NCBI GenBank assembly: GCA_050249335.1
Contig: JBFWQR010000007.1
Coordinates: forward strand, 20,943-84,942
Length of the DNA stretch: 64,000 nt
Direction: 5' to 3'
DNA from: Lautropia sp.
GTDB lineage: Bacteria > Pseudomonadota > Gammaproteobacteria > Burkholderiales > Burkholderiaceae_E
The notes under the pieces were generated by a model. It saw only the letters and a program-made list of their open reading frames with translations. It made no database searches and was not told where the DNA came from. The translations under genes and the position numbers were made by a program. Shown piece by piece: positions 46,506 through 61,605 of this stretch (its first letter is position 1; every line of letters begins with the position of its first letter).

Positions 46506-47423
46506 TCAGCCGAGACCGTCCGCCGACGCGAAGATCCGGTACTTGCGGATCAGTTCGCGGATCAGCGCGACGAACGTGCTCATCCGGAGCCCCGCCTCGC
46601 TCTGCTGATAGCAGATCGAGACGCGGTGCGACGGCAGCTCCGGCGTCACCGCGAGCTGGCGGACCAGCCGGGCCGCGACCTCCTGCTCCATCACGCGGAC
46701 CGGCACGATCGCGATCACCGAACCATGCTGGACCGCGACCTTGGTGACCGCGACGTTGTTGCAGACGCTGACGCGCGGCGGGACGACGCCGGAATCGGCG
46801 AACCAGCGATTGACCGTCGTGAACAGCCGCGAGGTCGCCGACGGGATCATCAGATGGAACCGGGCGAGGTCCGCCGGGGTCGCCGGATCGGCATCGGAGT
46901 GGGCGGACCCCGAGGCGAACCAGCCGAGGCGGCTCGACCCGACCGGTTCGCGGATCACGTGCGCCTCGACGGTCGGCTCCGAGACGATCGCGAGGTCGAG
47001 TTCGCGCTCGTTGAGCAGCCGGGACAGCGCACCGGAATCGCCGACCAGCACCGAGGCGGTGATCCGCGGATAGTGCGTCTGCAGCCGGTCGAGCAGGTCG
47101 GCGAGGCCGTTCAGCGCGAAGTTCTCGCTGAGGCCGATCCGCAGCTGCCCGCGCATCTCGTCGCCGGCGCGAAAGCGTTCCTGCAGCGTGGTCGCCGCCG
47201 CGAGTACCCGGTCGGCATGCTCGATCAGTGCATGGCCGTCCGCGGTCAGGCTGATCCGGGGGCCGCGGCGCAGGAACAGCCGTGTTCCGAGCGCCGCCTC
47301 GAGTTCCCGGACGCGCTGCGAAACGCTCGGCTGGCTCAGGTTCAGCAGCGCCGCGGCGCCCTGGAAGCTGCCGGTCGCGACGATCGACCGGAAGGCCTTC
47401 AGCTGGTTCAGTGTCGCAGTCAT
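46506..47423 (-). CDS. LysR family transcriptional regulator
   Basis: HTH SFQGAAALLNLSQPSVSQRVRELEAALGTRLF; divergent from ligK-like gene. Confidence 0.93.
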   Translation of the reverse strand: MTATLNQLKAFRSIVATGSFQGAAALLNLSQPSVSQRVRELEAALGTRLFLRRGPRISLTADGHALIEHADRVLAAATTLQERFRAGDEMRGQLRIGLSENFALNGLADLLDRLQTHYPRITASVLVGDSGALSRLLNERELDLAIVSEPTVEAHVIREPVGSSRLGWFASGSAHSDADPATPADLARFHLMIPSATSRLFTTVNRWFADSGVVPPRVSVCNNVAVTKVAVQHGSVIAIVPVRVMEQEVAARLVRQLAVTPELPSHRVSICYQQSEAGLRMSTFVALIRELIRKYRIFASADGLG

Positions 47424-47482
47424 CGCGCGCTCGGCAGGGCGGTCGGCGGCTCGAGTATAGGAATTTCCTTGGCTAGAACGCC

Positions 47483-47500
47483 ATAAAAACCCGTTTTTAT
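47483..47500. promoter_or_regulatory. Dyad in LysR/ligK divergent promoter
   Basis: ATAAAAAC-CC-GTTTTTAT; second dyad AGGAA-T-TTCCT near 47458-47468. Confidence 0.5.
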
Positions 47501-47566
47501 TTTCCTCGCGGCCGCCCTAAGCTGCGGCGTCATCGAGTGATGGCCACCCACGGCGAGGAGACGCGG

Positions 47567-48214
47567 ATGCAGGTCGAAGTGACCGACGATCGGATCGAGG
47601 CCCTGAAGCGGTTCGGCACCGCGACGATCCACGAGGCCCAGGGACAGAAAGGCGCCGTCGACGGCGCGATCCGGCCGCTCGATCCGGGCATGCGACTCGG
47701 CGGCCCGGCGCTGACGGTCCAGTGCCGCCCCGGCGACAACCTGGCACTGCACTACGCGCTGACCAAGGCGACGCCGGGACAGGTCATGGTCGTCGACGCC
47801 GAGGGCTTCACCGAAGCCGGGCCGTGGGGCGACGTGATGACCGGCGCGGCGCAGCTGGCCGGCCTGCGCGGTCTCGCGATCGACGGCTCGGTGCGCGACT
47901 CGGCAACGATCGTCGCGATGGGCTTCCCGGTGTTCTCGCGCGGCATCTCGATCAAGGGCACCAACAAGTGCCAGCCCGGGCGGGTCGGCATCCCGATCGT
48001 CTTCGGCGGCGTCGTCGTGCGGCCGGGTGACATCGTGATCGGCGACCGTGACGGGCTGGTCGTCGTCCTCGCCGAGGAGGTCGACCGGGTCATCGGGCTG
48101 TGCCAGCAACGCGAGGACAAGGAGGTCGAGTTCCGCAAGGCGCTGGCGAGCGGCAAGACCTCGATCGAATTGCTGGGCCTGCAGGGCCTGCTCGACCGGT
48201 TCGACATGAAATGA
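47567..48214 (+). CDS. ligK: 4-carboxy-4-hydroxy-2-oxoadipate aldolase (LigK/RraA-like family)
   Basis: GTATIHEAQG, PGDNL, WGDVM, IDGSVRDS; RBS GAGGAG 6 nt before ATG. Confidence 0.8.
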   Translation: MQVEVTDDRIEALKRFGTATIHEAQGQKGAVDGAIRPLDPGMRLGGPALTVQCRPGDNLALHYALTKATPGQVMVVDAEGFTEAGPWGDVMTGAAQLAGLRGLAIDGSVRDSATIVAMGFPVFSRGISIKGTNKCQPGRVGIPIVFGGVVVRPGDIVIGDRDGLVVVLAEEVDRVIGLCQQREDKEVEFRKALASGKTSIELLGLQGLLDRFDMK

Positions 48215-48236
48215 ACGACGCAGGAGGAGACCAGAC

Positions 48237-49232
48237 ATGAATTCCATGACCACGACATCGGCGCTGCGTGCATCGGCGCTCGCGCTCGCCGCCGTGACGA
48301 TCGTGGCGGCGGCTGCGGCCGACGCCGCCGCGGCCGAGCCGTTCCCGTGCAAGACGATCCGGCTGATCGCGCCGAACCCGCCGGGCGGCGCGACCGACGT
48401 GCTGTCGCGGATGCTGGCCGCGCCGCTCGGGCGCCGGCTCGACGTGCCGGTCGCGGTCGAGAACAAGGGCGGCGCATCGACCAATATCGGCAACGAGTAC
48501 GTCGTGCGCGCGGCGCCCGACGGCTGCACCCTGCTGCTCGGCAACATCTCGATGGCGCTGAACAAGTCGCTGTTCCACCTGAACTTCGAGATCGAGAAGG
48601 ACCTGCGCGCGGTGATCCAGGTCGCGTCGGTGCCGCTGGTGCTGTTCGTGCACCCGAGCGTCAAGGTGACCTCGGTCAAGGAGTTCATCGCGCTGGCCGC
48701 CGCATCGCCCGGCAAGGTCACGTTCTCCAGCGCCGGCAACGGCACGCCGACGCACCTGATCGCCGAGATGATCAACCAGAACGCCGGCGTCAAGATCGTC
48801 CACGTGCCGTACCGCGGCGCCGGTCCGGCGACGATGGACGTGATCGCCGGTCAGATCACCAGCAGCACCGACTCGCTGATCCCGGTGGTGCCGCATATCC
48901 GCAGCCAGACCGTCCGGGCGCTCGCGGTCACCGGGCCGGCCCGCTCGCCGGCGCTGCCGGAAGTGCCGACGTTCCGCGAACAGGGCGTGGACTACGTCGA
49001 CCTGTCGTTGTGGTACGGTGTGATGGCACCGGCCAGAACGCCGGACGCGATCGTCAAGCGGCTCAACGAGGAGCTCTCGGCGGTGCTGTCGAGCCCGGAG
49101 GTCCGCGAGAAGCTGGTCAGTCTCGGATCGAGCGACACCGACCGGTCGCCGGACGCGTTCCAGCACCTGGTCGCCAGCGAGACCGCGCGGCTCGGCGACC
49201 TGATCCGCGCGACCGGCGTCAAGGTCGAGTGA
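48237..49232 (+). CDS. Bug/TctC tripartite tricarboxylate transporter substrate-binding protein
   Basis: PPGGATDV, VENKGGA, VPYRGAG, LPEVPTFRE. Confidence 0.92.
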   Translation: MNSMTTTSALRASALALAAVTIVAAAAADAAAAEPFPCKTIRLIAPNPPGGATDVLSRMLAAPLGRRLDVPVAVENKGGASTNIGNEYVVRAAPDGCTLLLGNISMALNKSLFHLNFEIEKDLRAVIQVASVPLVLFVHPSVKVTSVKEFIALAAASPGKVTFSSAGNGTPTHLIAEMINQNAGVKIVHVPYRGAGPATMDVIAGQITSSTDSLIPVVPHIRSQTVRALAVTGPARSPALPEVPTFREQGVDYVDLSLWYGVMAPARTPDAIVKRLNEELSAVLSSPEVREKLVSLGSSDTDRSPDAFQHLVASETARLGDLIRATGVKVE

Positions 49233-50278
49233 TGATCATCGATTGCCACGGCCACTACACGACGGCGCCGCGCAGTCTCGAGGCGTACCGGGAGGCGCAG
49301 GCCGATGCGTTTCCCGACACCGGCCGGCTGGCATCGCTGGCGATCCCGCGCTTCGGCGACGACCAGATCCGCAGCACCATCGAGAATGGCCAGCTGCGTG
49401 TGCAGAACAGCCGCGGCATCGACGTGACGATCTTCTCGCCGCGCGCGGCCGGCATGTCGCACCATATCGCCGACTTCGCCGCCGGCGAGAAGTGGTCGCG
49501 ACTGTGCAACGACCTGATCGCGCGGATCTGCGGCTTCTATCCGGACCGCTTCGTCGGCGTCTGCCAGCTGCCGCAGTCGCCCGGCGTCCCGCCTGCGACC
49601 TGCGTCCCGGAACTGGTCCGCTGCGTCGAGGAGCTCGGCTTCATCGGCTGCAACCTGAACCCGGACCCGTCGGGCGGCTACTGGAAGGACCCGCCGCTGA
49701 CCGATCGCTGGTGGTATCCGCTGTACGAGAAGGTGGTCGAGCTCGACGTGCCGGCGATGATCCACGTCAGCGCCTCGTGCAACCCGAACTTCCACACCTC
49801 CGGCGCGCACTACCTGAACGGCGACACGTCGGCATTCATGCAGCTGCTGCTGTCGGACCTGTTCCGCGACTTCCCGACGCTGAAGCTCATCATCCCGCAC
49901 GGCGGCGGCGCGGTGCCGTACCACTGGGGGCGTTTCCGCGGCATCGCGCAGGATCTGAAACGGCCGCCGCTGCCGGAACTGCTGCTCGACAACGTCTTCT
50001 TCGATACCTGCGTCTACCACCAGCCCGGCATCGACCTGCTGACCCGCGTGATCCCGGTCAAGAACGTGCTGTTCGCGTCCGAGACGATCGGCGCGGTCCA
50101 GGGCATCGACCCGGAGACCGGCCATCACTTCGACGATACCCGCCGGTACATCGACGGCGTCTCCTCGCTGACCGCGGCCGAAAGGCAGCAGATCTTCGCC
50201 GGCAATGCGCGGCGGGTCTACGGGCGGCTCGATGCGCATCTGGCGAAGCATCGGATCGGCTGGCAGGCAGGAGGTTAA
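49232..50278 (+). CDS. ligJ: 4-oxalomesaconate hydratase (LigJ-like amidohydrolase)
   Basis: MIIDCHGHYTTAP, HGGGAVPYHWGR, FFDTCVYHQPGIDLL, LFASE.IGAV.GIDP. Confidence 0.85.
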   Translation: MIIDCHGHYTTAPRSLEAYREAQADAFPDTGRLASLAIPRFGDDQIRSTIENGQLRVQNSRGIDVTIFSPRAAGMSHHIADFAAGEKWSRLCNDLIARICGFYPDRFVGVCQLPQSPGVPPATCVPELVRCVEELGFIGCNLNPDPSGGYWKDPPLTDRWWYPLYEKVVELDVPAMIHVSASCNPNFHTSGAHYLNGDTSAFMQLLLSDLFRDFPTLKLIIPHGGGAVPYHWGRFRGIAQDLKRPPLPELLLDNVFFDTCVYHQPGIDLLTRVIPVKNVLFASETIGAVQGIDPETGHHFDDTRRYIDGVSSLTAAERQQIFAGNARRVYGRLDAHLAKHRIGWQAGG

Positions 50279-50285
50279 CTTCAGT

Positions 50286-50301
50286 GTCTCACGCGTGAGA
50301 C
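50286..50301. other. Perfect 16-bp palindrome between convergent operons
   Basis: GTCTCACGCGTGAGAC. Confidence 0.6.
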
Positions 50302-50315
50302 CATTCCATCCAGGT

Positions 50316-51287
50316 TCAGATGTCGAGCACGAGCTCGTCGCTGTTCGACCGCGAGCAGCAGACCGTGATCTGGTTGTTGGCAGCCCGCTCCTCGTCGGTG
50401 AGATACGAGTCGCGATGGTCGGGGAGCCCCTGCAGGACGCCGGTGACGCACGTTCCGCAAATGCCTTGTTCGCAGGAGAGCTGCACCAGGACGCCCTGGA
50501 CGGCGAGCGCGTCGGCGATGCTCTGGTCGGGGCCGACGACGACCGTCTTGCCGCTGCGGGCCGCGCGCACGGTGAACGGCCGCCCGGTCGCGATCACGTG
50601 CGCCGTGAAGTACTCCTTGTGTTGCGCCGTCGCGGGCCAGCCCGCGGCCGACGCGCTCGCCAGCACGTGTTCGATGAACCCGGCAGGTCCGCACACATGG
50701 AGCTCGTCGCCCGGCCGATACTCGCGCAGCAGCCGCGCCGCATCGAAGCGCTGCGCGGGCGGCCCGTCGTCGAAGTGGAAGCACAGCGCAGCCGAAAACT
50801 CGCGCTGCAGCTCGTCGCGGAATGCGGCCCGCTCCTCGGACCGGGCGCAGTAGTGCAACGCATAGTCCGCACCTGCCGTCTTCAACCCGTAGGCCATCGA
50901 CACGAGCGGCGTCACGCCGATGCCGCCGGCCAGCAGCAGCACGCGGCCGCCCGACCGGTGCAGCGGAAACGCGTTCCTCGGCGCGGACGTCACCAGGCGA
51001 TCGCCCTCGCGGAGGGCGTGCATCGCGACCGAACCGCCGCGGGAGCCCGGCTCCTCGAGGATGCCGAGGCGGTAGCGGTCGCCGCGTGCCGGATCGCCGG
51101 ACAGGGAGTACGAGCGTGCGATCCCGCCCGGCAGCGTCACGACGAGGTGTGCTCCCGGACTCCACGGCGGCAAGGCGCCGCCATCGTCCCGGCGCAAGGT
51201 CAGCGAGACGACGTCGCGCGCCTCGACCTTTCTTTCCACGACACGCAGCAGCAGCCCGTCATCGCGATCGCTCGCGAGCAGGCTCAC
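50316..51287 (-). CDS. PDR/VanB family flavin/[2Fe-2S] reductase
   Basis: RSYSL, AGGIGVTP, HVCGP, CEQGICGTC...CCS. Confidence 0.92.
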   Translation of the reverse strand: MSLLASDRDDGLLLRVVERKVEARDVVSLTLRRDDGGALPPWSPGAHLVVTLPGGIARSYSLSGDPARGDRYRLGILEEPGSRGGSVAMHALREGDRLVTSAPRNAFPLHRSGGRVLLLAGGIGVTPLVSMAYGLKTAGADYALHYCARSEERAAFRDELQREFSAALCFHFDDGPPAQRFDAARLLREYRPGDELHVCGPAGFIEHVLASASAAGWPATAQHKEYFTAHVIATGRPFTVRAARSGKTVVVGPDQSIADALAVQGVLVQLSCEQGICGTCVTGVLQGLPDHRDSYLTDEERAANNQITVCCSRSNSDELVLDI

Positions 51288-51724
51288 CCCTGCCGCATCC
51301 CGCTGTCGCGCTCGGCGGAAGCGATCGCTTCCACCTCGATGAGGAAGTCTTCCTTGACCAGGCGATCGACCATCAGCAGCGTGTTGGGCGGAAACCGGTG
51401 GCCGCCGAACAGCTGCGGAAACAGCTCCGCGCGCACGCGCATGAACCGCTCGATGTCCTGCGAGTGCACGAGATACGTCGTGAACTTGATGACGTGGTTG
51501 AAGCCCAGCTCGAGCCCGCCGAGGATGCCGCCCAGGTTGGAGAACACCTGCCGCATCTGTGCCTCGAAGTCGTGGCGGCCGACGACGTTGCCGTCCTTGC
51601 CCACGGAAAGCTGGCCGGCGATGTACGCCGTGCGCCCGTTGGCGGGCACGAGCGTGACGTTGGAGTAGAGGCCCTGCGCGGGGCCGGCGCCGGGAGGATT
51701 GGTGTATTCGATGTGGCTGTTCAT
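51284..51724 (-). CDS. RidA/YjgF family protein
   Basis: AYIAGQLS, FPPNTLLMVDRL..EDFLIEVEAIA. Confidence 0.88.
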   Translation of the reverse strand: MNSHIEYTNPPGAGPAQGLYSNVTLVPANGRTAYIAGQLSVGKDGNVVGRHDFEAQMRQVFSNLGGILGGLELGFNHVIKFTTYLVHSQDIERFMRVRAELFPQLFGGHRFPPNTLLMVDRLVKEDFLIEVEAIASAERDSGMRQG

Positions 51725-51747
51725 GGAGGTGGTTGGTGGCGAGCGTC

Positions 51748-52668
51748 TCAGGCTCGCTGATGGTGAAACTCGATCTGGAAGCCGTCCGGGTCCTCGACGC
51801 AGAGTTCGCCGTCGTTCATCCAGGCTCGATGGCCGAGCCCGGCGATCCGCGTCGCGACGTCCGGCAGGTCGTGCGGCTCGGCCAGCGCGAACCGGAAGCT
51901 GCGGAGCCCGACGGGTTCGCCGTCGGCGGCTTCGGACAGCGTGATGTCCGTGCGGCCGATGGCGCCGGCCAGGCGCACGTCACGGTGACCACCGACGTTT
52001 CGCTCGCCGACCCGGTCGAGGCCCGCGACCGATGTGAAGAACTCGGCCATCTCGTCGAACCGGCGTGTGGCAAAGCGCGTCCCGGTGAGATGGCTGGGAT
52101 GCAGCGGCGCGCGCTCCACGCGGCGCACGCGAAAGCCGTCGTTGTAGTTGTGCGCGTCGCTCGGCGGCTGCGCCAGCGGGTCCCACTCGCCGGTGACTTC
52201 GTCTTCGTTGGCGAGGTTGTAGATACGTTCCCAGTCGCGCATCTGGTCGGCATAGAACTCGTGGCCGTTGCCGTCCGGGTCGTTCAGGTAGACGCTGTGC
52301 GAGATCATGTGGTCGACCGTGCGACCGAGCGGATAGTTCGACGCTCCGGCGCGCCGCAGCGCCTCGACCAGCCGGGCTTCGGTGGCCATCTCCCAGCCGA
52401 GATGATTCAGCCCGACCTGGAGGCCGCGGGTCTTCGGGATCTGCAGCATGCCGTCGCGGCCGTAGCGATCCTTGCCGCGCGAGATCTCGACGATGCCGAC
52501 GTCGTGATGCGTGTTGCCGTTGGAGTGGAAGGCGATCAGGATCGCGCGCTCGCGGCGGACCAGCTCGATGCCGCACACGGACTCGTAGAAGTCGACCGAC
52601 TTCTCGAGGTCCGACACCCAGAGGTTGACGTGGCCCAGTCGACGGGGCCGGAAACTCACGTTGGTCAC
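51748..52668 (-). CDS. Two-domain VOC family protein (extradiol dioxygenase/glyoxalase-like)
   Basis: LGHVNLWV, LNHLGWE, SVYLNDPDGNGHEFY, C-terminal DPDGFQIEF; GTG start. Confidence 0.8.
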   Translation of the reverse strand: MTNVSFRPRRLGHVNLWVSDLEKSVDFYESVCGIELVRRERAILIAFHSNGNTHHDVGIVEISRGKDRYGRDGMLQIPKTRGLQVGLNHLGWEMATEARLVEALRRAGASNYPLGRTVDHMISHSVYLNDPDGNGHEFYADQMRDWERIYNLANEDEVTGEWDPLAQPPSDAHNYNDGFRVRRVERAPLHPSHLTGTRFATRRFDEMAEFFTSVAGLDRVGERNVGGHRDVRLAGAIGRTDITLSEAADGEPVGLRSFRFALAEPHDLPDVATRIAGLGHRAWMNDGELCVEDPDGFQIEFHHQRA

Positions 52669-53381
52669 TTGATGCTTCCCAGGAGATTTTCGGCGGCGGC
52701 CTTGCTGCGCAATCCCTTGAGCAGCCGCCGGGCGGTGCTCTCGACGTGCTGCCGACTCAGCTCCGCCAGGCCGGCGGCGTCGCCCGCGCGCAGCGCCTCG
52801 AGCATCTCGCGATGCTCGCGCGCGGCGGCTTCGGCGTTGCCGGTCAGGTCGATCTCCACGCTGACGTAGGGTTCGACGGTGCTGCGCAGCGTGCCCGCGA
52901 TGCGGCTCAGGCGCTTGCGGCGCGTGCATTCGATGATGCGCAAGTGGAACTCGTAGTTGAGCAGCGTCCAGCGGCTGCGGTAGTCGGGCGCCTTGGGGTC
53001 GAGCTGCTCCATCACGACCACCAGCTTCTCCACTTCGACGACGTCGGCGGGCGTGCGCGAGAGCGCGGCGATGCGGCCGGCGTGCTCCTCAATCAGCATT
53101 CGCAGGTCGAAGACCTCGACGATCTCGGCCTGGTCCAGCGCGGTGACGGCGTAGCCGCGGCGCGGCCGCGACTCGATCAGTCCGTCGGCTTCGAGCTGGC
53201 TCAGGGCCTCGCGCAGAGGAACCCGGCTGACGTTGAAGCTGCGCGCGAGTTCTTCCTGCCGCAGCACCTGGCCTGCCTGCAATGTGCCGACGAGAATGCT
53301 CCCGCGCAACCGCTCGTACAGCATGCGCGGCAGCGTCGGCGTCGACGGCGATGGTTCAAATTCCGTGGATACCGTATCCAA
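52665..53381 (-). CDS. GntR family (FCD) regulator
   Basis: EELARSFNVSRVPLREAL wHTH; FCD NYEFH and EHREML; TTG start uncertain. Confidence 0.92.
   Translation of the reverse strand: MDTVSTEFEPSPSTPTLPRMLYERLRGSILVGTLQAGQVLRQEELARSFNVSRVPLREALSQLEADGLIESRPRRGYAVTALDQAEIVEVFDLRMLIEEHAGRIAALSRTPADVVEVEKLVVVMEQLDPKAPDYRSRWTLLNYEFHLRIIECTRRKRLSRIAGTLRSTVEPYVSVEIDLTGNAEAAAREHREMLEALRAGDAAGLAELSRQHVESTARRLLKGLRSKAAAENLLGSIK
53366..53380. promoter_or_regulatory. Inverted repeat overlapping the GntR start
   Basis: TGGATAC-C-GTATCCA. Confidence 0.55.
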
Positions 53382-53405
53382 TCTCCTGCCTCTTCCTTTC
53401 TTGTC

Positions 53406-54221
53406 CTAGCCGACGCCCGGCCCGTGCTTGACCATGAACCCGATGCTGACGCTGAGGAACTCGTCCTTGACCTGGAACAGCGGCAGATGCCCCGCATTGT
53501 CGAAGATGACAAGCTCGGAGTTCGGGATGCGTTCGTGCATCAGGCGCGATGCGGCGGGCTGCGTCGTGCGATCGGCCGAGCCCACGGTGATCAGGGTCGG
53601 CGCCGTGATTAGGTGCAGCCGGTCGCGCGCCTCGTGCGCCTGCGCCGCGGCGTTCTGGCCGGACAGACCCGGTTCGGTCCCCGGATAGGGATTGGCCAGC
53701 TCGCGGCGCTTGAACTCCTCGACGCGCTCGGGATGTTCATTGACGAACTCGGGCGAGAAGAAGCCGATGATGCGCGTCGTGAGGTCGAGTTCGCGGTCGC
53801 CGGAAACCATGATGCGCCGGCGCATCGCGATCCAGTTCTGCTGGTACTCGGTGCGTCCGCCCGCGAACGACGAGTGCAGCGACAGCGTCAGCAGCCGGTC
53901 CGAAAACCCGACGCCGAGCTCGACGCCGACGGCGCCGCCGAGCGACCAGCCAGCGAAGTGCGCGCGCTCGATGCCGGCGTGATCCATCAACGCTACCATG
54001 TCGGCCGCGAGGTCGCGGATGCCGAAACCAGGCAACGCGGCTTCGCTGCGGCCGCAACCGCGCATGTCGGGCACCAGCACGCGGAAGTGGCGGCGGTACA
54101 CGTCGACGCACTCCTGCCAGCTGCCGCCGTGCGTGCCGAAGCCATGCAGCAGGATCAGCGGCGGGCCGGCGCCCGTCTCTTCGAAGTGAAGCCGAAGTCC
54201 CGAGGAGGTGTAGTTAGACAT
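53406..54221 (-). CDS. Alpha/beta fold hydrolase (PcaD/RutD-like)
   Basis: LLHGFG, GWSLGG nucleophile elbow, GSADR, AGHLP. Confidence 0.88.
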   Translation of the reverse strand: MSNYTSSGLRLHFEETGAGPPLILLHGFGTHGGSWQECVDVYRRHFRVLVPDMRGCGRSEAALPGFGIRDLAADMVALMDHAGIERAHFAGWSLGGAVGVELGVGFSDRLLTLSLHSSFAGGRTEYQQNWIAMRRRIMVSGDRELDLTTRIIGFFSPEFVNEHPERVEEFKRRELANPYPGTEPGLSGQNAAAQAHEARDRLHLITAPTLITVGSADRTTQPAASRLMHERIPNSELVIFDNAGHLPLFQVKDEFLSVSIGFMVKHGPGVG

Positions 54222-54229
54222 GATGGTTT

Positions 54230-55114
54230 CTAGCCCGTCCGTCCGCGCGCGCCGAGCAGTCCCGCCGGGCGCAACAGCAGCACGATCACGATCACGACAA
54301 AGGGAATGAGCGTCGCCGCCAGCGTCCCGACGACGTAGGATCCAAAGCTCTCGATCAGCCCGAGCATCAGCGCACCGACGAACGCCCCCGGCATGCTGCC
54401 CAGTCCGCCGAGGATAATGATCACGAACGCGCGGATCGAATACTCGAGGCCCATGTCCGGGTACACCGCGTACATCGTGGCCAGCATCATGCCGGCCGCG
54501 GCGGCCATCGTGGCGCCGATGCCGAACGCCACCGCGTGGACGTGGCGCGCGCGAACGCCGCACGCCGCGGCGAGATCCTTGCTCTGCGCGGTGGCGCGAA
54601 TGGCCATGCCGATGTCGGTGCGATGCAGCAGCGCGAACATGCCGGCCGTGATCGCGACCGCGGTGGCGAACGCCGCGGTCCTGGAGCGCGAGACGAGCAG
54701 CTCGCCGACCATCCACGAGCCCTGCAGCAGCGGCACGGCCTTGTAGTCGGCACTCCACAGCACCCGGGCGAGCGCGGCCAGCGACAGCGACAGGCCGTAG
54801 GTCAGGATCAGCGAGCTGTCCTCGATCGGCATCCGGCTGCCGTCGAGGCGCCGCACGACGAAGTACTGGAACAGATAGCCGCAACCGAAGAACACCGGGC
54901 CCAGCAGCAATAGGGCGAACACGGGGTTGAGCCCCGCGAGCTGCCAGACCCAGAACGCCGCGAACGCGCCCATCATCAGCACCTCGCCGTGCGCCATGTT
55001 GAGCACGCGGATGACGCCGAAGATGACGTTCAGTCCCAGCGCCAGCAGCGCGTAGACGCCTGCCAGCAGCAGCCCGTTGACGGTGAGCTGGCCGATGAGA
55101 CTGAACTGGTCCAC
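54230..55114 (-). CDS. Branched-chain amino acid-type ABC permease (LivH-like)
   Basis: LGLNVIFGV..VLNMAHGE, GMAIRA, GGLGSMPGA. Confidence 0.9.
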   Translation of the reverse strand: MDQFSLIGQLTVNGLLLAGVYALLALGLNVIFGVIRVLNMAHGEVLMMGAFAAFWVWQLAGLNPVFALLLLGPVFFGCGYLFQYFVVRRLDGSRMPIEDSSLILTYGLSLSLAALARVLWSADYKAVPLLQGSWMVGELLVSRSRTAAFATAVAITAGMFALLHRTDIGMAIRATAQSKDLAAACGVRARHVHAVAFGIGATMAAAAGMMLATMYAVYPDMGLEYSIRAFVIIILGGLGSMPGAFVGALMLGLIESFGSYVVGTLAATLIPFVVIVIVLLLRPAGLLGARGRTG

Positions 55115-55133
55115 CTCGATCTCTCTCGCGCGA

Positions 55134-56333
55134 TCAGGAGCGCTTGTCCCACGGCGGAAGCGTGGTCACCATCTGCGCGGTGGCGATGCTGGACGGCGTG
55201 ACGATCTGCCGCTTGCCGCCCTGCCACTGCACGGTGCCCAGCGTCTGGCCGATCTGCCGTCCGGTCGCGGCGTCCACCTTGAACCGCCCGGGCAGCAGCG
55301 TCTCCATGTCGAGCTTGAGGAAGGCCTCCCGAATCTTCTCGTTGTCCATCGCGCCGGCAGACTTGACCGCCGCCTCCAGGAGCTGGCCGCCGACCCAGCC
55401 GAAGCCGGACTGCACGTCGGGTTCGTCCTTGTACGCCGCGCGCCACTTGGCCGTGAATTCCTTGCTCACCGCCTTCTGGTCGACCGGCTCCCAGAGGTAG
55501 TCGGACATCACGCCCTCGGCGTCGCCCTTCAGCGCGGTGTGGAAGTCGTCCTTCAGCGGTCCGGGGCTGAGCGCGAGCGCCTTGGGCAGCACGCGCGCCT
55601 CCTTCATGTTGCGCACGATCAGCATCGAGTCCGGCAGCTGCGCGCCGCCGACAATGAGATCCGGCTTCGCAGTGCGCAGCTTGAGCATCAGGCTGGACAG
55701 GTCGGTCGCGTCGATGGGGAACTCTTCCTTGAGCACGACTTCGCGGTTGTACTTCTTCGCGAGCGCTTCGCAGGCGCCGCCCACGCTCTTGGCATACAGG
55801 TCGGACGAATGCACGATCGCCACGCGCTGGTAGCCCGCGCGGCTGGCCACGTCGTCCAGCAGCGGCTCGAAGATGCCGGCGATCGGCGGAAAGAGCTGGA
55901 AGATGTACTTGTACCCGCGCGTGAAGATCGAATCGCTCGCCGCGGAGGGCAGCAGCATCGGGATCTTGTATTTCTCGGTCACTGCCGACGCGGCGAAGCT
56001 CGCCGCGCTGCCGTAGGGGCCGAGCACCATGTCGACCTTGTCTTCGGTGATGAGCTTCTCGTAGAGACGCGCGCTGGTGCCGGCGTCGCTGCGATCGTCG
56101 AAGATCAGGAACTCGACGCGGCGGCCGAGCAGGCCGCCGCGAGTGTTGACTTCGCGCGCCCACAACTCGTAGCCGCGCTTGACCTTGTCGCCCGACGCCG
56201 ACAGCGTGCCGGTCAGCGAGAGCGAGGCGCCGATGCGCAGCGGGCGCTGCTGGGCGAAGACGCTGCCGCCGACCGCGGCGGCAACGGCGCCCATGGCGGA
56301 ACCGATCAGGGTGCGACGTTTCAGGATGTCCAT
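55134..56333 (-). CDS. Branched-chain amino acid-type ABC substrate-binding protein
   Basis: RR signal; IGASLSLTG, NTRGGLLGRRVE, LGPYGS. Confidence 0.9.
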   Translation of the reverse strand: MDILKRRTLIGSAMGAVAAAVGGSVFAQQRPLRIGASLSLTGTLSASGDKVKRGYELWAREVNTRGGLLGRRVEFLIFDDRSDAGTSARLYEKLITEDKVDMVLGPYGSAASFAASAVTEKYKIPMLLPSAASDSIFTRGYKYIFQLFPPIAGIFEPLLDDVASRAGYQRVAIVHSSDLYAKSVGGACEALAKKYNREVVLKEEFPIDATDLSSLMLKLRTAKPDLIVGGAQLPDSMLIVRNMKEARVLPKALALSPGPLKDDFHTALKGDAEGVMSDYLWEPVDQKAVSKEFTAKWRAAYKDEPDVQSGFGWVGGQLLEAAVKSAGAMDNEKIREAFLKLDMETLLPGRFKVDAATGRQIGQTLGTVQWQGGKRQIVTPSSIATAQMVTTLPPWDKRS

Positions 56334-56345
56334 GGAATCACTCCG

Positions 56346-57452
56346 TCACAGGTTGAACAGGCGGGTGGTGTTGCCGCCCACGACTAGCTGCTGGGCGGCG
56401 GGCGGCAGCGCCTGCAGCATCTCGGCGAGCCGGCTCTGCGTTTCGATGCCGATCGAGCGCACATGCGGGAAGTCGGAGCCCCACAGCACCTGCGAGTAGC
56501 CGATCTCCTTGAACGCGACCTCGGCGCGCGGGTCGTCGATCATTCCGTGGAAGATCCGCGTGCGCAGGTAGTCGCTCGCCTTGTGATCGAGCGGCGGCAT
56601 CTTGATGTAGTCGCCGAAGTCATCCTGGACCTGGTCGAGCCGGTACATGAAGTGCGGCAGCCACGACAGTTCGTACTCGCCGCACAGCACCTTGAGCGTC
56701 GGAAAGCGGTCGAGGATCCCGCCGAAGATGAAGTCGTTGCCCAGCGTGCTCTGGATTTCGTTCCAAACCTTGAGCATCGCGCGCGGCGCCTGCTTGTACT
56801 GCTCCTCGTCGTGGAAGTACACCAGCGGATCGATCTCCTGGCCCGTGATGATGTGGAGGATCACCGGCTGGTCGAGCTCCTGGCAGACGGCCCAGAATCT
56901 GTCGTAGCTGCGGTCGACGTACGGCCGGGCCGACGGCGGCGGCGTGACGTTGACGAGGCATCCGCGCAACCCGCGGTTGGCGGTCCGGCGCAGCTCGGCG
57001 ACGGCCCAGTCGATGTCGTGCACTGGAATCACGCTCGTGCCGATCAGCCGCTTGGGATCAGCCGAACAGAACTCGGCGATCCAGTCGTTGTAGACCCGGC
57101 ACGCGGCCTGCGCGATCTCGGCGTCTTCGACCGTGATGATCTGCGCGCAGATGCTGGGATAGATCACCTCGCCGGCGAGCCCCGCGCGCTTCTGGAATTC
57201 GAGGCGGACGTGCGGATCGAATCCGGACTTGACCAGCAGGTCCTCTTCCGGCGTGCGCTGGTCCGGCGGCGTGTCGCTGACGCCGTACTTGCTGACGTGC
57301 TGGCCGCTGAAGAAGAACTTGCCCTTGCGGCCGCGGTGCTCGGTCAGGGGCCGTGGCGTGCGGTCACCGTACTTCGAGCCCATTGCATCCCACCACAGGT
57401 TCACCGGCTCCCGCACATGTGAGTCGCCGGAGATCACGCGTTCGAACTGCAT
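56346..57452 (-). CDS. Amidohydrolase_2 family protein (decarboxylase/hydratase-like)
   Basis: ISGDSHVRE, VILHI, FPTLK, LWGSDFPH. Confidence 0.85.
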   Translation of the reverse strand: MQFERVISGDSHVREPVNLWWDAMGSKYGDRTPRPLTEHRGRKGKFFFSGQHVSKYGVSDTPPDQRTPEEDLLVKSGFDPHVRLEFQKRAGLAGEVIYPSICAQIITVEDAEIAQAACRVYNDWIAEFCSADPKRLIGTSVIPVHDIDWAVAELRRTANRGLRGCLVNVTPPPSARPYVDRSYDRFWAVCQELDQPVILHIITGQEIDPLVYFHDEEQYKQAPRAMLKVWNEIQSTLGNDFIFGGILDRFPTLKVLCGEYELSWLPHFMYRLDQVQDDFGDYIKMPPLDHKASDYLRTRIFHGMIDDPRAEVAFKEIGYSQVLWGSDFPHVRSIGIETQSRLAEMLQALPPAAQQLVVGGNTTRLFNL

Positions 57453-57462
57453 GCACTTATCC

Positions 57463-58194
57463 TCACGAAGCGGCCGCGGGAACGGCCTGATTGCCGAAGT
57501 AGAGCGATAGGATGTCGCTGCCCTGCGCGAAGGCAGAGGCCGGCTCGTCGCGTACGATGCGACCCATCCGCAGGAAGCACACACGCCGCGCCGCGCGCAG
57601 CGCGAACCGGATGTTCTGTTCGACCAGGATCAGCGTGACGCCGCGCTCGTTGAGCGTTGCGAGCTGGCCCGCGAAGAACGCCAGCGTCTTCGGGTCGAGC
57701 CCGATCGATGGCTCGTCGAGCAGCAGCGCGCGCGGTTCGAGCATCATGGCGCGCGCGAGGCCCACCATCTTCTGCTGCCCGCCGGACAGCGAGTTGGCCG
57801 GCTTGCGGCGGTACGACGCGACGTCCGGATACCGTTCGTACGTGCGCTCCAGCACCTCGCGCCGGCGGCGGCGATCAGGCTCGACGTAAACGCCCATCAG
57901 CAGGTTCTCTTCCACGGTCATCGCCGGAAAGACGAGGTCCGACTGCGGCAGCAGCGCGAGGCCGCGGCGCGCCCGCTCCGCGGCCGGCAGCGTGGTGACG
58001 TCGGCACCGCCGAAGTGGATCTGCCCTTCGCGCGCGCGCAGCAGGCCGGCCATGGTCTTCAGCAGCACGCTCTTGCCCGCGCCGTTCGGCCCGAGCACGG
58101 CAACGACTTCGCCTTGCCGGACCGCGAGGTCGAGCCCGTGCAGCACGTCGAGCTTGCCGTAGCCGGAGCGAACCCCCTGCAGCGTGAACAGCAT
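57463..58194 (-). CDS. ABC ATP-binding protein (LivF-like)
   Basis: GPNGAGKS, LSGGQQKM, LLDEPSIGL. Confidence 0.92.
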   Translation of the reverse strand: MLFTLQGVRSGYGKLDVLHGLDLAVRQGEVVAVLGPNGAGKSVLLKTMAGLLRAREGQIHFGGADVTTLPAAERARRGLALLPQSDLVFPAMTVEENLLMGVYVEPDRRRRREVLERTYERYPDVASYRRKPANSLSGGQQKMVGLARAMMLEPRALLLDEPSIGLDPKTLAFFAGQLATLNERGVTLILVEQNIRFALRAARRVCFLRMGRIVRDEPASAFAQGSDILSLYFGNQAVPAAAS

Positions 58195-58910
58195 CACGCC
58201 TCTCCGAGATACGAGCTGATCACAGCGGGGTCGCGCCGGACCTCGTCGGGGCTGCCGTCGGCGATCAACCTGCCGCGATCGAGCACGAGGATGCGCGGGC
58301 AGAGCGCCATGACCGTCGCGAGGTCGTGCTCCACCAGCACGATGCCGATGCCCTCCTCCGCCAGGTGCGTGACGTGCCGCTGCAGGTCTTCGCAGATCTG
58401 CGGCGCCAAGCCGGCGAACGGCTCGTCGAGCAGGATGAAGCGCGGCCGGCTCATCATCACGCGCGCGAGTTCGACCAGCCGTTGCTGGCCGAACGACAGC
58501 GCATCGGCGGTGCGTGCCGCGAGCTGTCCGATGTTGAGCCGCTTCAGCAGCGTCGTGGCCTCGTCGACCGACGGTACGTCGTCGCTCGTCGCGCCGCGGC
58601 CGATCAGGACGTTCTCGACCACGGTCAGGCTCTTGAACAGCCGGGTCGTCTGGAACGTGCGCGCGATGCCGGCGCGCACGATCTCGTGCGGCCGGCGATT
58701 CGTGAGCCGCAGGGTGCCGAGCGCGACTTCTCCCGCGTCGGCCCGCACGATGCCGGTGAGCACGTTGAACAGCGTGGACTTGCCCGATCCGTTGGGGCCG
58801 ACCAGCCCCGTGATGCAGCCGGGTTCGCACCGCAGCGAGCACCCGTCCAGCACGACGAGGCCGCCAAATTTCTTGCTCAGCCCATCGGCGCGCAGGCTCG
58901 CCGCGCTCAC
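58194..58910 (-). CDS. ABC ATP-binding protein (LivG-like)
   Basis: GPNGSGKS, LSFGQQR, LLDEPFAGL; GTG start. Confidence 0.92.
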   Translation of the reverse strand: MSAASLRADGLSKKFGGLVVLDGCSLRCEPGCITGLVGPNGSGKSTLFNVLTGIVRADAGEVALGTLRLTNRRPHEIVRAGIARTFQTTRLFKSLTVVENVLIGRGATSDDVPSVDEATTLLKRLNIGQLAARTADALSFGQQRLVELARVMMSRPRFILLDEPFAGLAPQICEDLQRHVTHLAEEGIGIVLVEHDLATVMALCPRILVLDRGRLIADGSPDEVRRDPAVISSYLGEA

Positions 58911-59902
58911 GCCGCAGCCTCCTTGTTCGCATCCCGGCGCCGCTTGAACCAGCCCAGCAGTCCGTCGGGCGCGAACAGCACGAGCGCCATCAGCAGCAGA
59001 CCGAATACGAGCTGGTGCAGCGTCGGAAAGTGCGCCCACAGCAACTCGGACAACCCGAACACCAGCACCGCGCCGATCACGGGGCCGAACACCGTTCCCG
59101 CGCCGCCCAGCAGCACCATCACGATCATGCTCACGTTGATGCGCAACGAGAACGCTTCGTCGGGGTTGATGTAGCTGAGGTACCACGCGTAGACGCCGCC
59201 GCAGAAGCCGGGCAGCACCGCGCTCAGCACGAACGCCTTGAGCTTCTCGGCCTGCGTGTCGATGCCCACGGCTTCGGCCGCGAGCTCGTCGTCGCGGATC
59301 GCCTTGAGCTTGCGGCCGAAGTTGCTGCGGTCGATGGCCCAGACGCCGCAGACGGACACGATCGCGGCCAGCGCGAGCGCGAAGTACACCGGCACCAGCG
59401 ACTGCGACGACGGCAGCGACAATCCCTTCCCGCCGCCGGTCCACTCGTCAGCCACGTGCACCGCGATGCGCAGCACCTGGCTGAACGCCAGCGTGAGGAT
59501 CACGAACGCCGGGCCCTTGATCCGCAGCGACGGAAAGCCAACCACGAGCGCGCCCAGCGCCGCCCCGGCCGCGCCAAGGCAGGTCGCGGCGATCCAGTGC
59601 AGGCCCGCGCCGGTGATCAGCAGCGACGAGCAGTATGCGCCGATGCCGAAGTACGCGACATGGCCGAATGTGAAGTAGCCGGTGTAGCCACCGATGAGGT
59701 TCCAGCTGCTGGCGAGCGCGATGTACATGAAGCCCAGCAGCAGGACGGACAACTGGTACGGCGACGCGATCAGCGGCGCGGCCGCGATCAGCGCGCACAC
59801 GGCCAGCATCACGATGACGAGGCGGCGCGACACCCGCCGGTCCTGACTGGAAGCCGGGTCGGACACGAGCGGCAGCACCGCTGCGCCGACCCGGCGACTC
59901 AT
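58907..59902 (-). CDS. Branched-chain amino acid-type ABC permease (LivM-like)
   Basis: GYTGYFTFGHVAYFGIGAY, GRKLKAIRDDE, GGAGTVFGP. Confidence 0.9.
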   Translation of the reverse strand: MSRRVGAAVLPLVSDPASSQDRRVSRRLVIVMLAVCALIAAAPLIASPYQLSVLLLGFMYIALASSWNLIGGYTGYFTFGHVAYFGIGAYCSSLLITGAGLHWIAATCLGAAGAALGALVVGFPSLRIKGPAFVILTLAFSQVLRIAVHVADEWTGGGKGLSLPSSQSLVPVYFALALAAIVSVCGVWAIDRSNFGRKLKAIRDDELAAEAVGIDTQAEKLKAFVLSAVLPGFCGGVYAWYLSYINPDEAFSLRINVSMIVMVLLGGAGTVFGPVIGAVLVFGLSELLWAHFPTLHQLVFGLLLMALVLFAPDGLLGWFKRRRDANKEAAA

Positions 59903-60528
59903 CTGCCGTCGCGCCACTGAAGACACGAAGATACGCCGGGAACGACGCGGGCAGGCAGGCGGCGCGCCGGGTTCATGTACCCGACCTCGACGACCGCGAC
60001 GACCCGGCCCTCACCGGGGTCGACGCCGACGAGCCGATGAACCTCCGGCGACTCCGGCAGATCGCCGGTGGTGATCAGCGACGACAGCCCGTTGCTGGCG
60101 AGCGAGAGCAGCAGGTTCTCGATCGCCGCGGCGCAGGCGAACTCCTCTTCCTTCGGCTTCACCTTCGGGTTGGAGGTCTGCGGCAGGCACGCCGCGACGA
60201 TCATGACCGGCGCTTCGGTCCCGCGCGCGCGCGCCTGGCGCGTATCGCGCCCGAGCCGGCCGCCGGCCGCCTCGTACGCATCGGCCAGGGACTCGAGACC
60301 GTCTCCGGCAAACGCGAACAACCGCAGCGGCTGCGATCGGTGGTGATTCGGCGCCTGCAACGCATGCCGAACCGCGTCTTCGACGAGGTGCCGGGGCACG
60401 GGTTTGTCCAGGTACGAGTACACGGACCGGCGCGACGAAACGACCGCCTCCAACGCTTGCGCGAGATCGAAATTCGCGACCGGTGCGGCGGCTGATTCCC
60501 CGCCGCCGTGAGCGTCCTGAGACATCAA
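59899..60528 (-). CDS. Nitroreductase family protein
   Basis: SRRSV, ALQAPNH..SQP, IENLLL....GL. Confidence 0.82.
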   Translation of the reverse strand: MMSQDAHGGGESAAAPVANFDLAQALEAVVSSRRSVYSYLDKPVPRHLVEDAVRHALQAPNHHRSQPLRLFAFAGDGLESLADAYEAAGGRLGRDTRQARARGTEAPVMIVAACLPQTSNPKVKPKEEEFACAAAIENLLLSLASNGLSSLITTGDLPESPEVHRLVGVDPGEGRVVAVVEVGYMNPARRLPARVVPGVSSCLQWRDGR

Positions 60529-60538
60529 ACCCCTTTCG

Positions 60539-60689
60539 ATTATGTATACATTCTACGAATATTTGACCGAATCATTCACATGCGCAACCGCGATCTTGGA
60601 GGTTTCAGGAGTGTATTTCGCGACTCTATCTGCGTCAATTATGTATTCAATAACTCACCAACTCTCCTATAAATGATTTTTGAATACAC
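60539..60689. promoter_or_regulatory. AT-rich control region with repeated GTATNCA boxes (GntR-type operators)
   Basis: ATGTATACAT palindrome 60542-60551; ATTATGTATTCAA 60638-60650; TGAATACA 60681-60688. Confidence 0.6.
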
Positions 60690-60784
60690 TTATGGCGAGC
60701 AAGGAAATGGTTCGCGATAGCGTGCGGGCCAATCGACGCACGAGCCGCAAGGGCGCCCCGATGGACGGCACCACTGATGTTCAG

Positions 60785-61158
60785 ATCGGCATAGGGGCCG
60801 GCCCTCGCGGGCCGGGCCCCTTAGCGGCTGTTACGCCGCCAGCGTCGGCTGTTCGCGGCCACGGCCCCGGGCGTCCATTCGCCGTGCCTCGAGCACGGCC
60901 TCATGCGCATCGCGGCCCGGTCGGAAGCCGTGGCTGTGCTCCGAGAACGTCGGGTCGATGATGAGCTCCTGCAGCAAGGCCTGCTGGATCAGCCGATCCA
61001 CCACCGTCAGGATCCCCAGTTCGCGCTGCCCACCGTCGGGCTTCGGTATCCGGACCCGCCGCACCGGCTCGGGCCGGTAGCTGCCGTTCGGTTCTCACTT
61101 GCCGTGATCAGCTTGTGGGGAGACTCACACCCCAGGAGTGCGCCCGTGCCGGGCGCAC
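60785..61158 (-). mobile_element. Internally deleted class IIC group II intron (374 nt)
   Basis: 5' end GTGCGCCCGGCACGGGCGCA...GTGTGAGTCTCCCCACAAGCTGATCAC; RT fragment; domain VI-like AGGGG-CCCGGCCC-GCGA-GGGCCGG-CCCCTATGCCGAT 3' end; placed directly after an intrinsic terminator. Confidence 0.85.
60879..61088 (-). pseudogene. Group II intron reverse transcriptase fragment (RT1-2 region, ~70 codons)
   Basis: GSYRPEPVRRVRIPKPDGGQRELGILTVVDRLIQQALLQ..DPTFSEHSHGFRPGRDAHEAV; GIPT changed to GILT; no YADD region. Confidence 0.9.
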
Positions 61159-61184
61159 AAAGAAAACCCGGCGATCGCCGGGTT
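61159..61184 (-). terminator. Intrinsic terminator of the S10 operon
   Basis: AACCCGGCGATCGCCGGGTT hairpin followed by TTCTTT on the minus strand, ~120 nt after rpsQ. Confidence 0.85.
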
Positions 61185-61305
61185 GCTGGATCAGCGACGT
61201 CGGGCCGGTAGGCCGCATCGTCGCTTGTTGTCGTCGAGCGTCTTGTATCCGGCGTTGCCGCCGGGAGCGCTGTCGCTGTCGGTAGAGGCCGGTTGCCCGT
61301 CCGGT

Positions 61306-61605
61306 TCAGACGGACTTGTTCGCCACCAGCAGGCGCGAGACATACCACGCCTTGGTCTTGGACACCGGACGCCCTTCCTGGATCTCCACCAGATCCCCCT
61401 CGTTGTACCGTGCTTCCGTGTGCGCATGGTACTTCTTGCTGCGCGTCACGTACTTGCCGTAGACCGGATGCTTGACCTTGTGCTCGACCAGCACGGTCAC
61501 GGTCTTCTGCATCTTGTTGCTGGTGACCCGGCCGGACAAAGTCCGGGTATTGGTCTTGGGTTTGGTGCTCGACTCGGCCGTCGCCGCTGCCGTCTGCTCG
61601 GTCAT
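61306..61605 (-). CDS. rpsQ: 30S ribosomal protein S17
   Basis: [21 protein letters not shown]. Confidence 0.97.

Follow-up and report, generated by a model that had tools for sequence, protein, structure and literature searches.

The recognition of amidohydrolase-related dinuclear oxygenases (AROs) dates only from the years 2019 to 2026, and very few of them have known substrates. PtmU3, DitZ, AibH2 and SfbO are the founding members, and the definition (Liu/Rittle) asks for an N-terminal D-x-H motif, which is ARO-specific, and a C-terminal D-x-P-H-x-[D/E] motif (PMC13154177). PtmU3 acts in platensimycin/platencin biosynthesis and DitZ in abietane diterpenoid catabolism, both as high-potential diiron AROs. 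AibH2 is part of the AibH1H2-AibG-AibF system, the 2-aminoisobutyrate monooxygenase of Rhodococcus wratislaviensis, in which AibF is a 322-aa FMN/[2Fe-2S] reductase (PMC7782822). Here, we describe a 12-gene operon of Lautropia sp. that encodes a PtmU3-like protein, an importer and a putative ring-cleavage enzyme of the VOC family. It lies at positions 50316-60528 of the window, by which we mean the whole 64,000-nt stretch analysed (GenBank assembly GCA_050249335.1, contig JBFWQR010000007.1, positions 20,943 to 84,942); all positions below are those of the window. We read it, with a probability of roughly 0.55, as a self-regulated operon for the breakdown of a small aromatic or heteroaromatic compound that is taken up by the cell, with an ARO-like oxygenase and an extradiol cleavage step.

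The 12 ORFs are all on the minus strand and fill the interval (Table 1). From the nitroreductase-family gene (NTR) to the gene of a phthalate dioxygenase reductase-type protein (PDR), the successive intergenic gaps are -28, -4, -1, 10, 12, 19, 8, 24, -4, 23 and -4 nt, in a window with a G+C content of ~68%. After re-reading of the starts, the NTR ATG is probably at 60525 and the LivM ATG probably at 59902, both slightly inside the ORF; in the latter case, the LivM start and the NTR stop overlap as ATGA. An earlier note on this DNA had described a tightly packed, same-strand operon linked to a GntR regulator and had interpreted it as an undescribed catabolic route for nitrogen-bearing ring compounds. 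The packing is confirmed by the ORF coordinates and gaps (-28 to +24 nt), every family label was reproduced by Pfam and a single GntR-linked catabolic operon is supported; the interpretation, as detailed below, holds only in part. The gene order LivM-LivG-LivF-'amidohydrolase'-SBP-LivH plus alpha/beta hydrolase-GntR-VOC-Rid (SBP, substrate-binding protein) was found again on unrelated contigs. The co-occurrence on which the earlier reading depended thus holds for the core, and the arrangement is not a chance juxtaposition. None of the operon enzymes reaches a curated NCBIfam cut-off, a search of the published literature found no description of this cluster, and, in line with what had been supposed, no close characterised homologue or curated model ties it to a known pathway. 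We conclude that the operon is a real, conserved and uncharacterised variant of a meta-cleavage catabolic operon, and we agree with the earlier note that its substrate cannot be read from the sequence.

The gene sitting mid-way among the importer genes encodes an Amidohydro_2 protein, which had been taken for an ACMSD-type enzyme. A phmmer search of the PDB returned PtmU3 at 1.3e-41 and DitZ at 2.3e-17, with LigW and gamma-resorcylate decarboxylases at 1e-13 to 1e-15 and ACMSD at ~1e-6. Foldseek, run with an AlphaFold2 model of high confidence (pLDDT 94), placed PtmU3 at the top (TM 0.82), then DitZ, MAP2389c and SfbO, with AibH1H2 close behind among decarboxylases. The N-terminal D-x-H on strand 1 is present as D10-S11-H12 (57417-57425), D-S-H being kept in 116 of 120 homologues, and the C-terminal loop reads D327-F-P-H-V-R332 (56457-56474), with an invariant D, P and H. 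Following the ligand numbering of the AibH and ARO papers, D10, H12, H200, E259, D327 and H330 align as the counterparts of AibH2 D25, H27, H211, E265, D337 and H340; these six predicted metal-ligand positions agree with PtmU3 in a pairwise alignment and are invariant or nearly so in the homologue alignment. The secondary sphere, with Ser at gamma1, Tyr98 at gamma2 and Val331 at gamma4, fits the published criteria of diiron 'H-AROs'. The ACMSD assignment is therefore not retained, the protein having D-x-H and not H-x-H and matching PtmU3 at 1e-41 versus ~1e-6 for ACMSD. More generally, membership of the ACMSD, LigW or gamma-resorcylate decarboxylases was rejected, given a D-x-H in place of H-x-H or E-x-H, weak matches and no NCBIfam match.

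The protein shares with PtmU3 and DitZ the PF04909 TIM barrel, the D-x-P-H loop, the strand-5 His and the bridging Glu (PMC13154177, PMC10811679), as well as the lack of an adjoining Rieske ferredoxin, which is typical of H-AROs; with PtmU3 it also shares the N-terminal D-S-H with an identical gamma1 Ser. It differs from PtmU3 in that the identity is only ~29%, that R332 stands where PtmU3 has the metal-binding Glu313 (Asp in other AROs), and that E337, five residues on, corresponds to an Arg in PtmU3, as if the two residues had been swapped. The setting differs too, since the gene here lies within an ABC importer and is coupled to ring cleavage, whereas PtmU3 and DitZ belong to CoA-ester/diterpenoid chemistry. 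From these alignments, the Amidohydro_2 protein is probably an O2-activating oxygenase. We file it as ARO-like, not as a proven member, because Arg replaces the acidic residue at the end of the motif.

Several observations weigh against this assignment and the operon model built on it. The D-x-P-H-x-[D/E] motif is incomplete, with Arg as its last residue here and in 117 of 120 homologues. The acidic residue in that place is conserved only in binuclear members, and AibH2 D342A was affected (PMC7782822, PMC10401708); an Arg-ended site could be mononuclear or run a different chemistry. No reductase is found beside the ARO-like gene in the loci L024, L030, L031 and L032, and in the wider ARO-like clade (~48% identity) two of the four sampled loci are without a VOC gene. 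Finally, the Rid protein of the operon is without the Arg needed for imine hydrolysis. Elsewhere in the same genome, a third ARO-like paralogue (C35:26854-27933; 42% identity, DYPHGR) has a TctC receptor and a fragment of an alpha/beta hydrolase as neighbours and no VOC gene near it, and a canonical ARO with DYPHND is encoded on C49.

The comparative evidence comes from metagenomic contigs, reference genomes yielding almost no relatives: the ARO-like protein was found in none of the 400 class genomes scored besides its own (one further genome was unscored), and a pattern scan of 185,579 reference species returned two real relatives only. L024 is an orthologous operon (71-86% identity), and a JGI contig of P0028 shows GntR followed by LivMGF-ARO-SBP-LivH-ABhyd-VOC-Rid-NTR (ABhyd, alpha/beta hydrolase). 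In L031 and L032, ARO-like proteins of ~48% identity occur in Liv cassettes beside a two-domain VOC gene; those of L033 and L034, of similar identity, are not in a Liv cassette beside a VOC gene. In L030, a Liv-ARO cassette and an NMT1-ABC/FAD-monooxygenase cassette flank one ABhyd-GntR-VOC-Rid core. NMT1-ABC and an FAD monooxygenase replace Liv and ARO in L025, L027, L028 and C52, the first three of these loci carrying an FAA hydrolase with the FAD monooxygenase, and Rieske alpha/beta oxygenases resembling benzoate/anthranilate dioxygenases do so in L026 (Paraburkholderia piptadeniae) and L029 (Pigmentiphaga). For the FAD monooxygenase, Rieske and FAA-hydrolase proteins of the sister loci, NCBIfam gave nothing above cut-off; the FAA hydrolases resemble beta-diketone (acylpyruvate-type) hydrolases.

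The same exchange is seen inside the genome, which holds four VOC paralogue modules whose upstream oxygenase is ARO-like in two, an FAD monooxygenase with TauD in one, and a Rieske protein with PDR in one. Besides the operon itself, these are C66:101-10963, with NTR-LivM-LivG-LivF-ARO (75%)-SBP (70%)-LivH-VOC (54%) convergent with a LysR gene and the FAA-hydrolase-Rid (Arg-type)-dienelactone-type hydrolase genes under its control; C52:29730-37756, with Rid-ABhyd-FAD monooxygenase-TauD-NMT1 ABC-VOC-GntR; and C147:6027-11072, with Rieske (2-oxoquinoline-monooxygenase type)-VOC-ABhyd-PDR-Rieske. Because ARO, FAD and Rieske enzymes interchange around the same core, the ARO-like protein would be the upper-pathway hydroxylase. 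It had been suggested that the VOC enzyme and the Fe-S reductase take the place of the known oxygenases; the pathway is in fact not short of a hydroxylating oxygenase, which the ARO-like protein and the Fe-S reductase probably supply. Phage-type integrases or IS110/rve transposases flank VOC modules (L030:13592-15525, L025:2635-4189, L026:20776-20951 and L028:3651-4664), which suggests that the VOC module travels on mobile elements.

We then consider the VOC protein, for which the earlier proposal of a ring-cleavage dioxygenase proved credible. Its AlphaFold2 model (pLDDT 95.6) has two domains of the paired beta-alpha-beta-beta-beta fold, and Foldseek matched it to XylE (catechol 2,3-dioxygenase, C23O), LapB, BphC and HPCD with a probability of 1.0, E 5e-15, TM ~0.65 and 11-18% identity. 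Of the residues invariant among 59 aligned sequences, nearly all (H13, N15, E40, H55, D56, E93, H120, Y127, D130, P131, G133 and E137) fall in the N-terminal domain, where H54 and H89 are nearly invariant, and the C-terminal domain is almost without invariant residues. Candidate metal ligands are H13, H89 and E137, with H54/H55 and Y127 as possible catalytic-type residues. Residues 118-137 (52258-52317) carry VDHMISHSVYLNDPDGNGHE, a match to the extradiol signature (PROSITE PS00082). In a PDB profile search, positions 82-140 aligned to residues 213-274 of the catalytic C-terminal domain of C23O, and positions 192-310 to the non-catalytic N-domain of HPCD and XylE. In canonical enzymes the catalytic domain is C-terminal, while here the conserved residues and the signature are N-terminal. 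As both the profile alignment and the conserved residues put the catalytic half N-terminal, the protein is predicted to be an extradiol dioxygenase with its domain order reversed.

With XylE/C23O, BphC and HPCD, the VOC protein thus shares the two-domain fold, the His/His/Glu candidates, a catalytic His and Tyr and the Y-x2-D-P-x-G-x3-E pattern; it differs in having the catalytic domain N-terminal and a degenerate domain C-terminal, and in an insertion of ~30 residues between H55 and H89. A hydroquinone dioxygenase of the PcpA/LinE/MnpC type was dropped as a candidate, these enzymes being absent from the PDB sequence matches and from the 50 best Foldseek matches. The best profile match to the catalytic half is 9u42_A, a 182-residue single-domain 'Glyoxalase' (E 1.2e-9, positions 87-176), which may be its closest solved relative. 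At E <=1e-10, ~520 homologues were found in 5.8 billion proteins, none of them characterised; within the order, only 2 of 401 genomes encode the protein, and legume-associated Paraburkholderia piptadeniae and Mesorhizobium are among the organisms with homologues.

The last gene of the operon encodes a protein of 323 aa that aligns over its full length (residues 8-323, E 2.3e-61) with the phthalate dioxygenase reductase 2PIA. It has the RxYS motif as RSYS at 58 and C-x4-C-x2-C-x29-C from 272, and thus every feature of the phthalate dioxygenase reductase class (IA, FMN/[2Fe-2S]). No Rieske oxygenase was found on the 85-kb contig, leaving the ARO-like protein as the only evident partner within the operon, and it is plausible, from this gene content, that PDR is its electron donor. 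The arrangement recalls the AibH1H2-AibG-AibF system, a catabolic operon that also combines an ARO with a ~322-aa FMN/[2Fe-2S] NADH reductase and a dedicated transporter (PMC7782822, PMC10401708). It differs from that system in having neither an AibH1-like partner subunit nor a Rieske ferredoxin (AibG), in secondary-sphere residues that by the published rules point to the H-type (diiron) and not to Mn/Fe, and in ring cleavage as the downstream chemistry. The PDB best matches of the NTR are 7tmf, 2i7h and YdjA. The earlier note had counted both NTR and PDR as parts of the pathway set, but they are not conserved: NTR, a variable accessory, occurs in three of seven ARO-type loci, and PDR is unique to this copy among them and otherwise found in only one Rieske locus.

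The Rid protein had been read as an enamine or aminomuconate deaminase of the RidA type. In the archetypes, Arg105 (Arg117 in AmnE) is essential for imine hydrolysis and is kept by RidA, Rid1-3 and the 2-aminomuconate deaminase AmnE, and Arg-less Rid subfamilies have no known function (PMC4433059, PMC6742747). Here, Asn114 (51383-51385) aligns with the essential Arg of PH0854 and UK114, and the TIGR00004 score is 47.4 against a cut-off of 106.25, so that the protein does not fall with archetypal RidA or with the aminomuconate deaminases and the deaminase role is not sustained. Rid is tightly coupled to VOC and is 57-80% identical in L024 and L026-L030, and a PPNTLL stretch is conserved across seven loci in the Rid proteins beside VOC, L024 and L026-L030 included. 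Rid proteins of the Arg type are encoded in two of the sister loci, C66 and L025. The Arg-less Rid of the operon weakens the argument for a nitrogen-bearing ring, which had leaned on enamine deamination; the odds that the substrate carries nitrogen are roughly even.

The regulator has an N-terminal winged helix-turn-helix and a C-terminal FCD domain, as in the FadR subfamily. It is encoded within the operon, its stop overlapping the VOC start, and its orthologues (56-84% identity) adjoin VOC in L024 and L026-L030. Upstream of the NTR, a sigma-70-like TTGACG-17-TACACT is found at 60638-60610 on the minus strand, and TTGAATACA forms an inverted pair (60642-60650 on the minus and 60680-60688 on the plus strand), these two being its sole exact matches in the window. 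The same element has one exact match in each of the 16-21 kb loci L027, L028, L029 and L030, in the promoter region adjoining the ABhyd/GntR/VOC genes, and none in the LysR-controlled loci. From this pattern, TTGAATACA is a candidate operator of a FadR-type GntR regulator. A palindrome, ATGTATACAT, lies just ahead of the ribosome-binding site at ~60542-60551. The SBP carries a Tat-like signal, KRRTLIG, and its PDB search gave only generic Leu/Ile/Val- or aromatic-acid-type binders, with no clue to the substrate. The alpha/beta hydrolase has a GWSLG nucleophile elbow and stays below the cut-offs of the PcaD, RutD and BphD models; its best PDB matches, esterases and 3-oxoadipate enol-lactonase, are generic and equally silent on the substrate, and it is a candidate for acting on the ring-fission product.

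From the families, operon structure, cassette conservation, ligand and motif patterns, fold relations and operator recurrence observed, we infer a scheme of catalytic roles, redox pairing and substrate class in which the Tat-exported LivJ-type SBP and the LivHMGF ABC importer would take up the substrate. The PtmU3-like protein would act on it as a dinuclear, probably diiron, O2-activating oxygenase, fed in this genome by PDR, to yield a vicinal dihydroxy (or amino-hydroxy) ring, which the VOC protein, with its catalytic domain first and a vestigial second domain, would open. The alpha/beta hydrolase and the Arg-less Rid would process the fission product. NTR may be an optional helper that either serves the oxygenase as a flavin/quinone reductase or reduces a reactive product, and the GntR/FCD protein would use TTGAATACA-type sites to keep the promoter repressed as long as no effector is bound. 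It is also possible, although doubtful, that the D-x-P-H-x-R clade (hundreds of metagenomic sequences, usually with Liv importers) is a functionally new branch of dinuclear oxygenases that, with the permuted VOC and the Arg-less Rid, defines an undescribed pathway for a class of (N-)aromatics of landfills or soil; its members could be (hetero)aromatic hydroxylases, or reductase-independent oxidases in which Arg replaces a second-sphere carboxylate.

Another explanation could be that the Amidohydro_2 protein is a non-redox enzyme, such as a decarboxylase of the ACMSD, LigW, gamma-resorcylate or PicC type, a hydratase or a hydrolase, which makes the VOC substrate from an imported carboxylated or masked diol; Arg332 would then bind the substrate carboxylate, and PDR and NTR would be unrelated or accessory. 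Many PF04909 proteins are decarboxylases, which are also among the sequence and fold matches, most orthologous loci have no reductase beside the gene, Arg stands in place of the defining acidic ARO residue, and the title of a PDB entry records arginines essential for ACMSD catalysis. This explanation has to account for a D-x-H motif that is ARO-specific (PMC13154177), for invariant H330 and E259, the second-metal ligand and the bridge, and for a similarity to PtmU3 that is ~25 orders of magnitude above that to any decarboxylase. Moreover, the gene fills the slot of the FAD or Rieske hydroxylase of the sister loci, and H-type AROs are generally without adjacent ferredoxins. We consider a non-redox role unlikely. 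Far less probable still is the reductive route for nitroaromatics and aminophenols that the earlier note had drawn on, in which NTR would lead through a hydroxylamine to an aminophenol, the VOC protein would cleave it, an ACMSD-type enzyme would decarboxylate and RidA would deaminate. A nitroreductase-family gene does head the operon, Rid-family and Amidohydro_2 genes are present and the source is probably a landfill, but no hydroxylaminobenzene mutase is found, NTR is missing from four of seven ARO-type loci and from every locus of the FAD or Rieske type, the Amidohydro_2 protein resembles PtmU3 and not ACMSD, and the Rid is without the Arg kept by AmnE and RidA. The dioxygenases known to act on aminophenol and 3-hydroxyanthranilate belong to the LigB type or to the cupins, and the operon has neither.

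A quite improbable alternative is a third, non-homologous route for 4-hydroxypyridine/3,4-dihydroxypyridine (3-hydroxy-4-pyridone, mimosine-derived). In this route a hydroxylase would give a pyridine-diol, the VOC protein would stand in for PydA/KpiC, the alpha/beta hydrolase would deformylate like KpiB, Rid would take formiminopyruvate, and an FAA-family acylpyruvate hydrolase would come last. The kpi cluster of Arthrobacter sp. IN13 has an FAD monooxygenase, an Abhydrolase_1, an FAA-hydrolase and a FadR-type regulator, and these four families surround the VOC homologues in L025, L027, L028 and C66, where the FAA hydrolases are of the beta-diketone (acylpyruvate) type; homologues from legume-associated P. 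piptadeniae and Mesorhizobium, and the pairing in C147 of VOC with a 2-oxoquinoline-monooxygenase-type Rieske protein, also agree with it. Taken with the pyd cluster of Rhizobium TAL1145, the shared elements are a hydroxylase, a ring-opening dioxygenase, an alpha/beta hydrolase, a FadR/GntR-type regulator and dedicated uptake, plus an FAA-family hydrolase in the sister loci only. However, PydA is LigB-type and KpiC is Amidohydro_1 (PMC7356986, PMC3637104), and the VOC protein is in neither family. A PydA-like identity of the VOC protein was considered but does not agree with these families, and so membership of the pyd/kpi systems was rejected and only the pathway logic kept. In addition, the operon has an added Rid, which is without Arg, and no FAA hydrolase or FAD monooxygenase, with no FAH on contig C7; the enzyme set equally fits an aminocatechol-type or ordinary catechol meta-cleavage, and the likeness to KpiA, KpiB and KpiD is at the level of the described families. 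As for the Rut pyrimidine pathway, with which an analogy had been drawn, it likewise brings together Rid, alpha/beta hydrolase and nitroreductase superfamilies. The scores here are far under cut-off (RutD 93.2 versus 238.5, RutC 24.7 versus 169.1), with no RutE match, no RutA, RutB, RutF or RutG and an NTR that varies across orthologous loci, and the analogy fails.

Table 1. Genes and control region of the operon, in order of reading on the minus strand.
Feature	Position	Strand	Evidence
Promoter/operator region	60529-60700	-	sigma-70-like box, TTGAATACA inverted pair, ATGTATACAT palindrome
Nitroreductase-family flavoprotein (NTR), YdjA-like	59899-60528	-	PF00881 E 3.6e-20
LivM-type permease	58907-59926	-	PF02653 E 5.5e-44
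LivG-type ABC ATPase	58194-58910	-	PF00005 + PF12399
LivF-type ABC ATPase	57463-58194	-	PF00005
Amidohydro_2 protein, PtmU3-like, candidate dinuclear oxygenase	56346-57452	-	PF04909 E 6e-31
Periplasmic SBP, LivJ/HAAT-type, Peripla_BP_6	55134-56333	-	PF13458 E 5.6e-54
LivH-type permease	54230-55114	-	PF02653 E 5e-37
Alpha/beta-fold serine hydrolase, Abhydrolase_1	53406-54221	-	PF00561 E 1.9e-28
GntR/FCD regulator (FadR-subfamily)	52665-53381	-	PF00392 E 2.4e-18 + PF07729 E 2.3e-23
Two-domain VOC extradiol dioxygenase candidate	51748-52668	-	PF00903 Glyoxalase/VOC
Rid (YjgF/RidA) family protein	51284-51724	-	PF01042 Ribonuc_L-PSP E 1.1e-18
PDR-type FMN/NADH/[2Fe-2S] reductase, FNR-like + Fer2	50316-51287	-	2PIA E 2.3e-61

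An accessory block of ~18.4 kb (42800-61200), of which the operon forms the final part, lies between rpsQ (S17, 61306-61605) and rplN (L14, ~42222-42590), after which L24 and L5 follow; the inserted block separates the S10 and spc ribosomal-protein operons, which are normally contiguous. After rpsQ, a rho-independent terminator lies at 61184-61165, and a scan for such terminators gave no candidate at the operon's 3' end. At 60831-61094 (minus strand), a fragment of 87 codons has similarity to the N-terminal region of a group II intron/retron-type reverse transcriptase (RVT_1 E 3.6e-6, just under the Pfam cut-off; motif IPKPDGGQRELGILTVVDRLIQQA...GFRPGR) and is probably a mobile-element scar at the block edge. 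On the other side, at 46506-50278, a LysR gene is divergent from genes for a ligK-like CHA aldolase (47537-48214, passing NF006731), a TctC receptor (48237-49232) and LigJ (49232-50278), the last a true 4-oxalomesaconate hydratase (1e-151 to PDB 2GWG). The ligK-like and LigJ proteins correspond to the final two steps of the protocatechuate 4,5-cleavage/gallate pathway. These ligK-tctC-ligJ genes are convergent with the operon and only 37 nt from its end; they are not carried by the orthologous L024 and were set aside as neighbours, a functional link being possible. Further along, genes for a xylose-isomerase-like TIM barrel (AP_endonuc_2), a DUF993 protein and a GFO/IDH/MocA oxidoreductase stand in a row (42972-46389, minus strand), as in a catabolic trio of the sugar or inositol type, inside the inserted block. 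The genome is metagenome-assembled, and the sequence itself occurs only in DNA runs, from landfill and freshwater metagenomes, three landfill runs having a near-full word share, which suggests a landfill origin.

For the ARO family, the published D-x-P-H-x-[D/E] census misses a whole clade in which all six ligands are kept. The ARO papers cited name no physiological electron donor for the high-potential (PtmU3/DitZ) type, and the operon offers a tractable ARO-like enzyme together with two candidate reductases, a cognate SBP and a regulator with which ligands could be sought, the downstream ring-cleavage enzyme constraining the product to be expected from the ARO-like step. If the D-x-P-H-x-R clade were indeed a new branch of dinuclear oxygenases, PDR and NTR would be the first candidates for the physiological reductase of an H-type ARO. 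The VOC protein, which annotation pipelines label only as 'VOC family protein', would show that two-domain extradiol dioxygenases are possible in the opposite domain order. Finally, with a GntR-VOC-Rid core to which swappable importer and hydroxylase cassettes are joined, in four versions in one genome, the Lautropia sp. loci show how catabolic breadth is assembled in polluted habitats.

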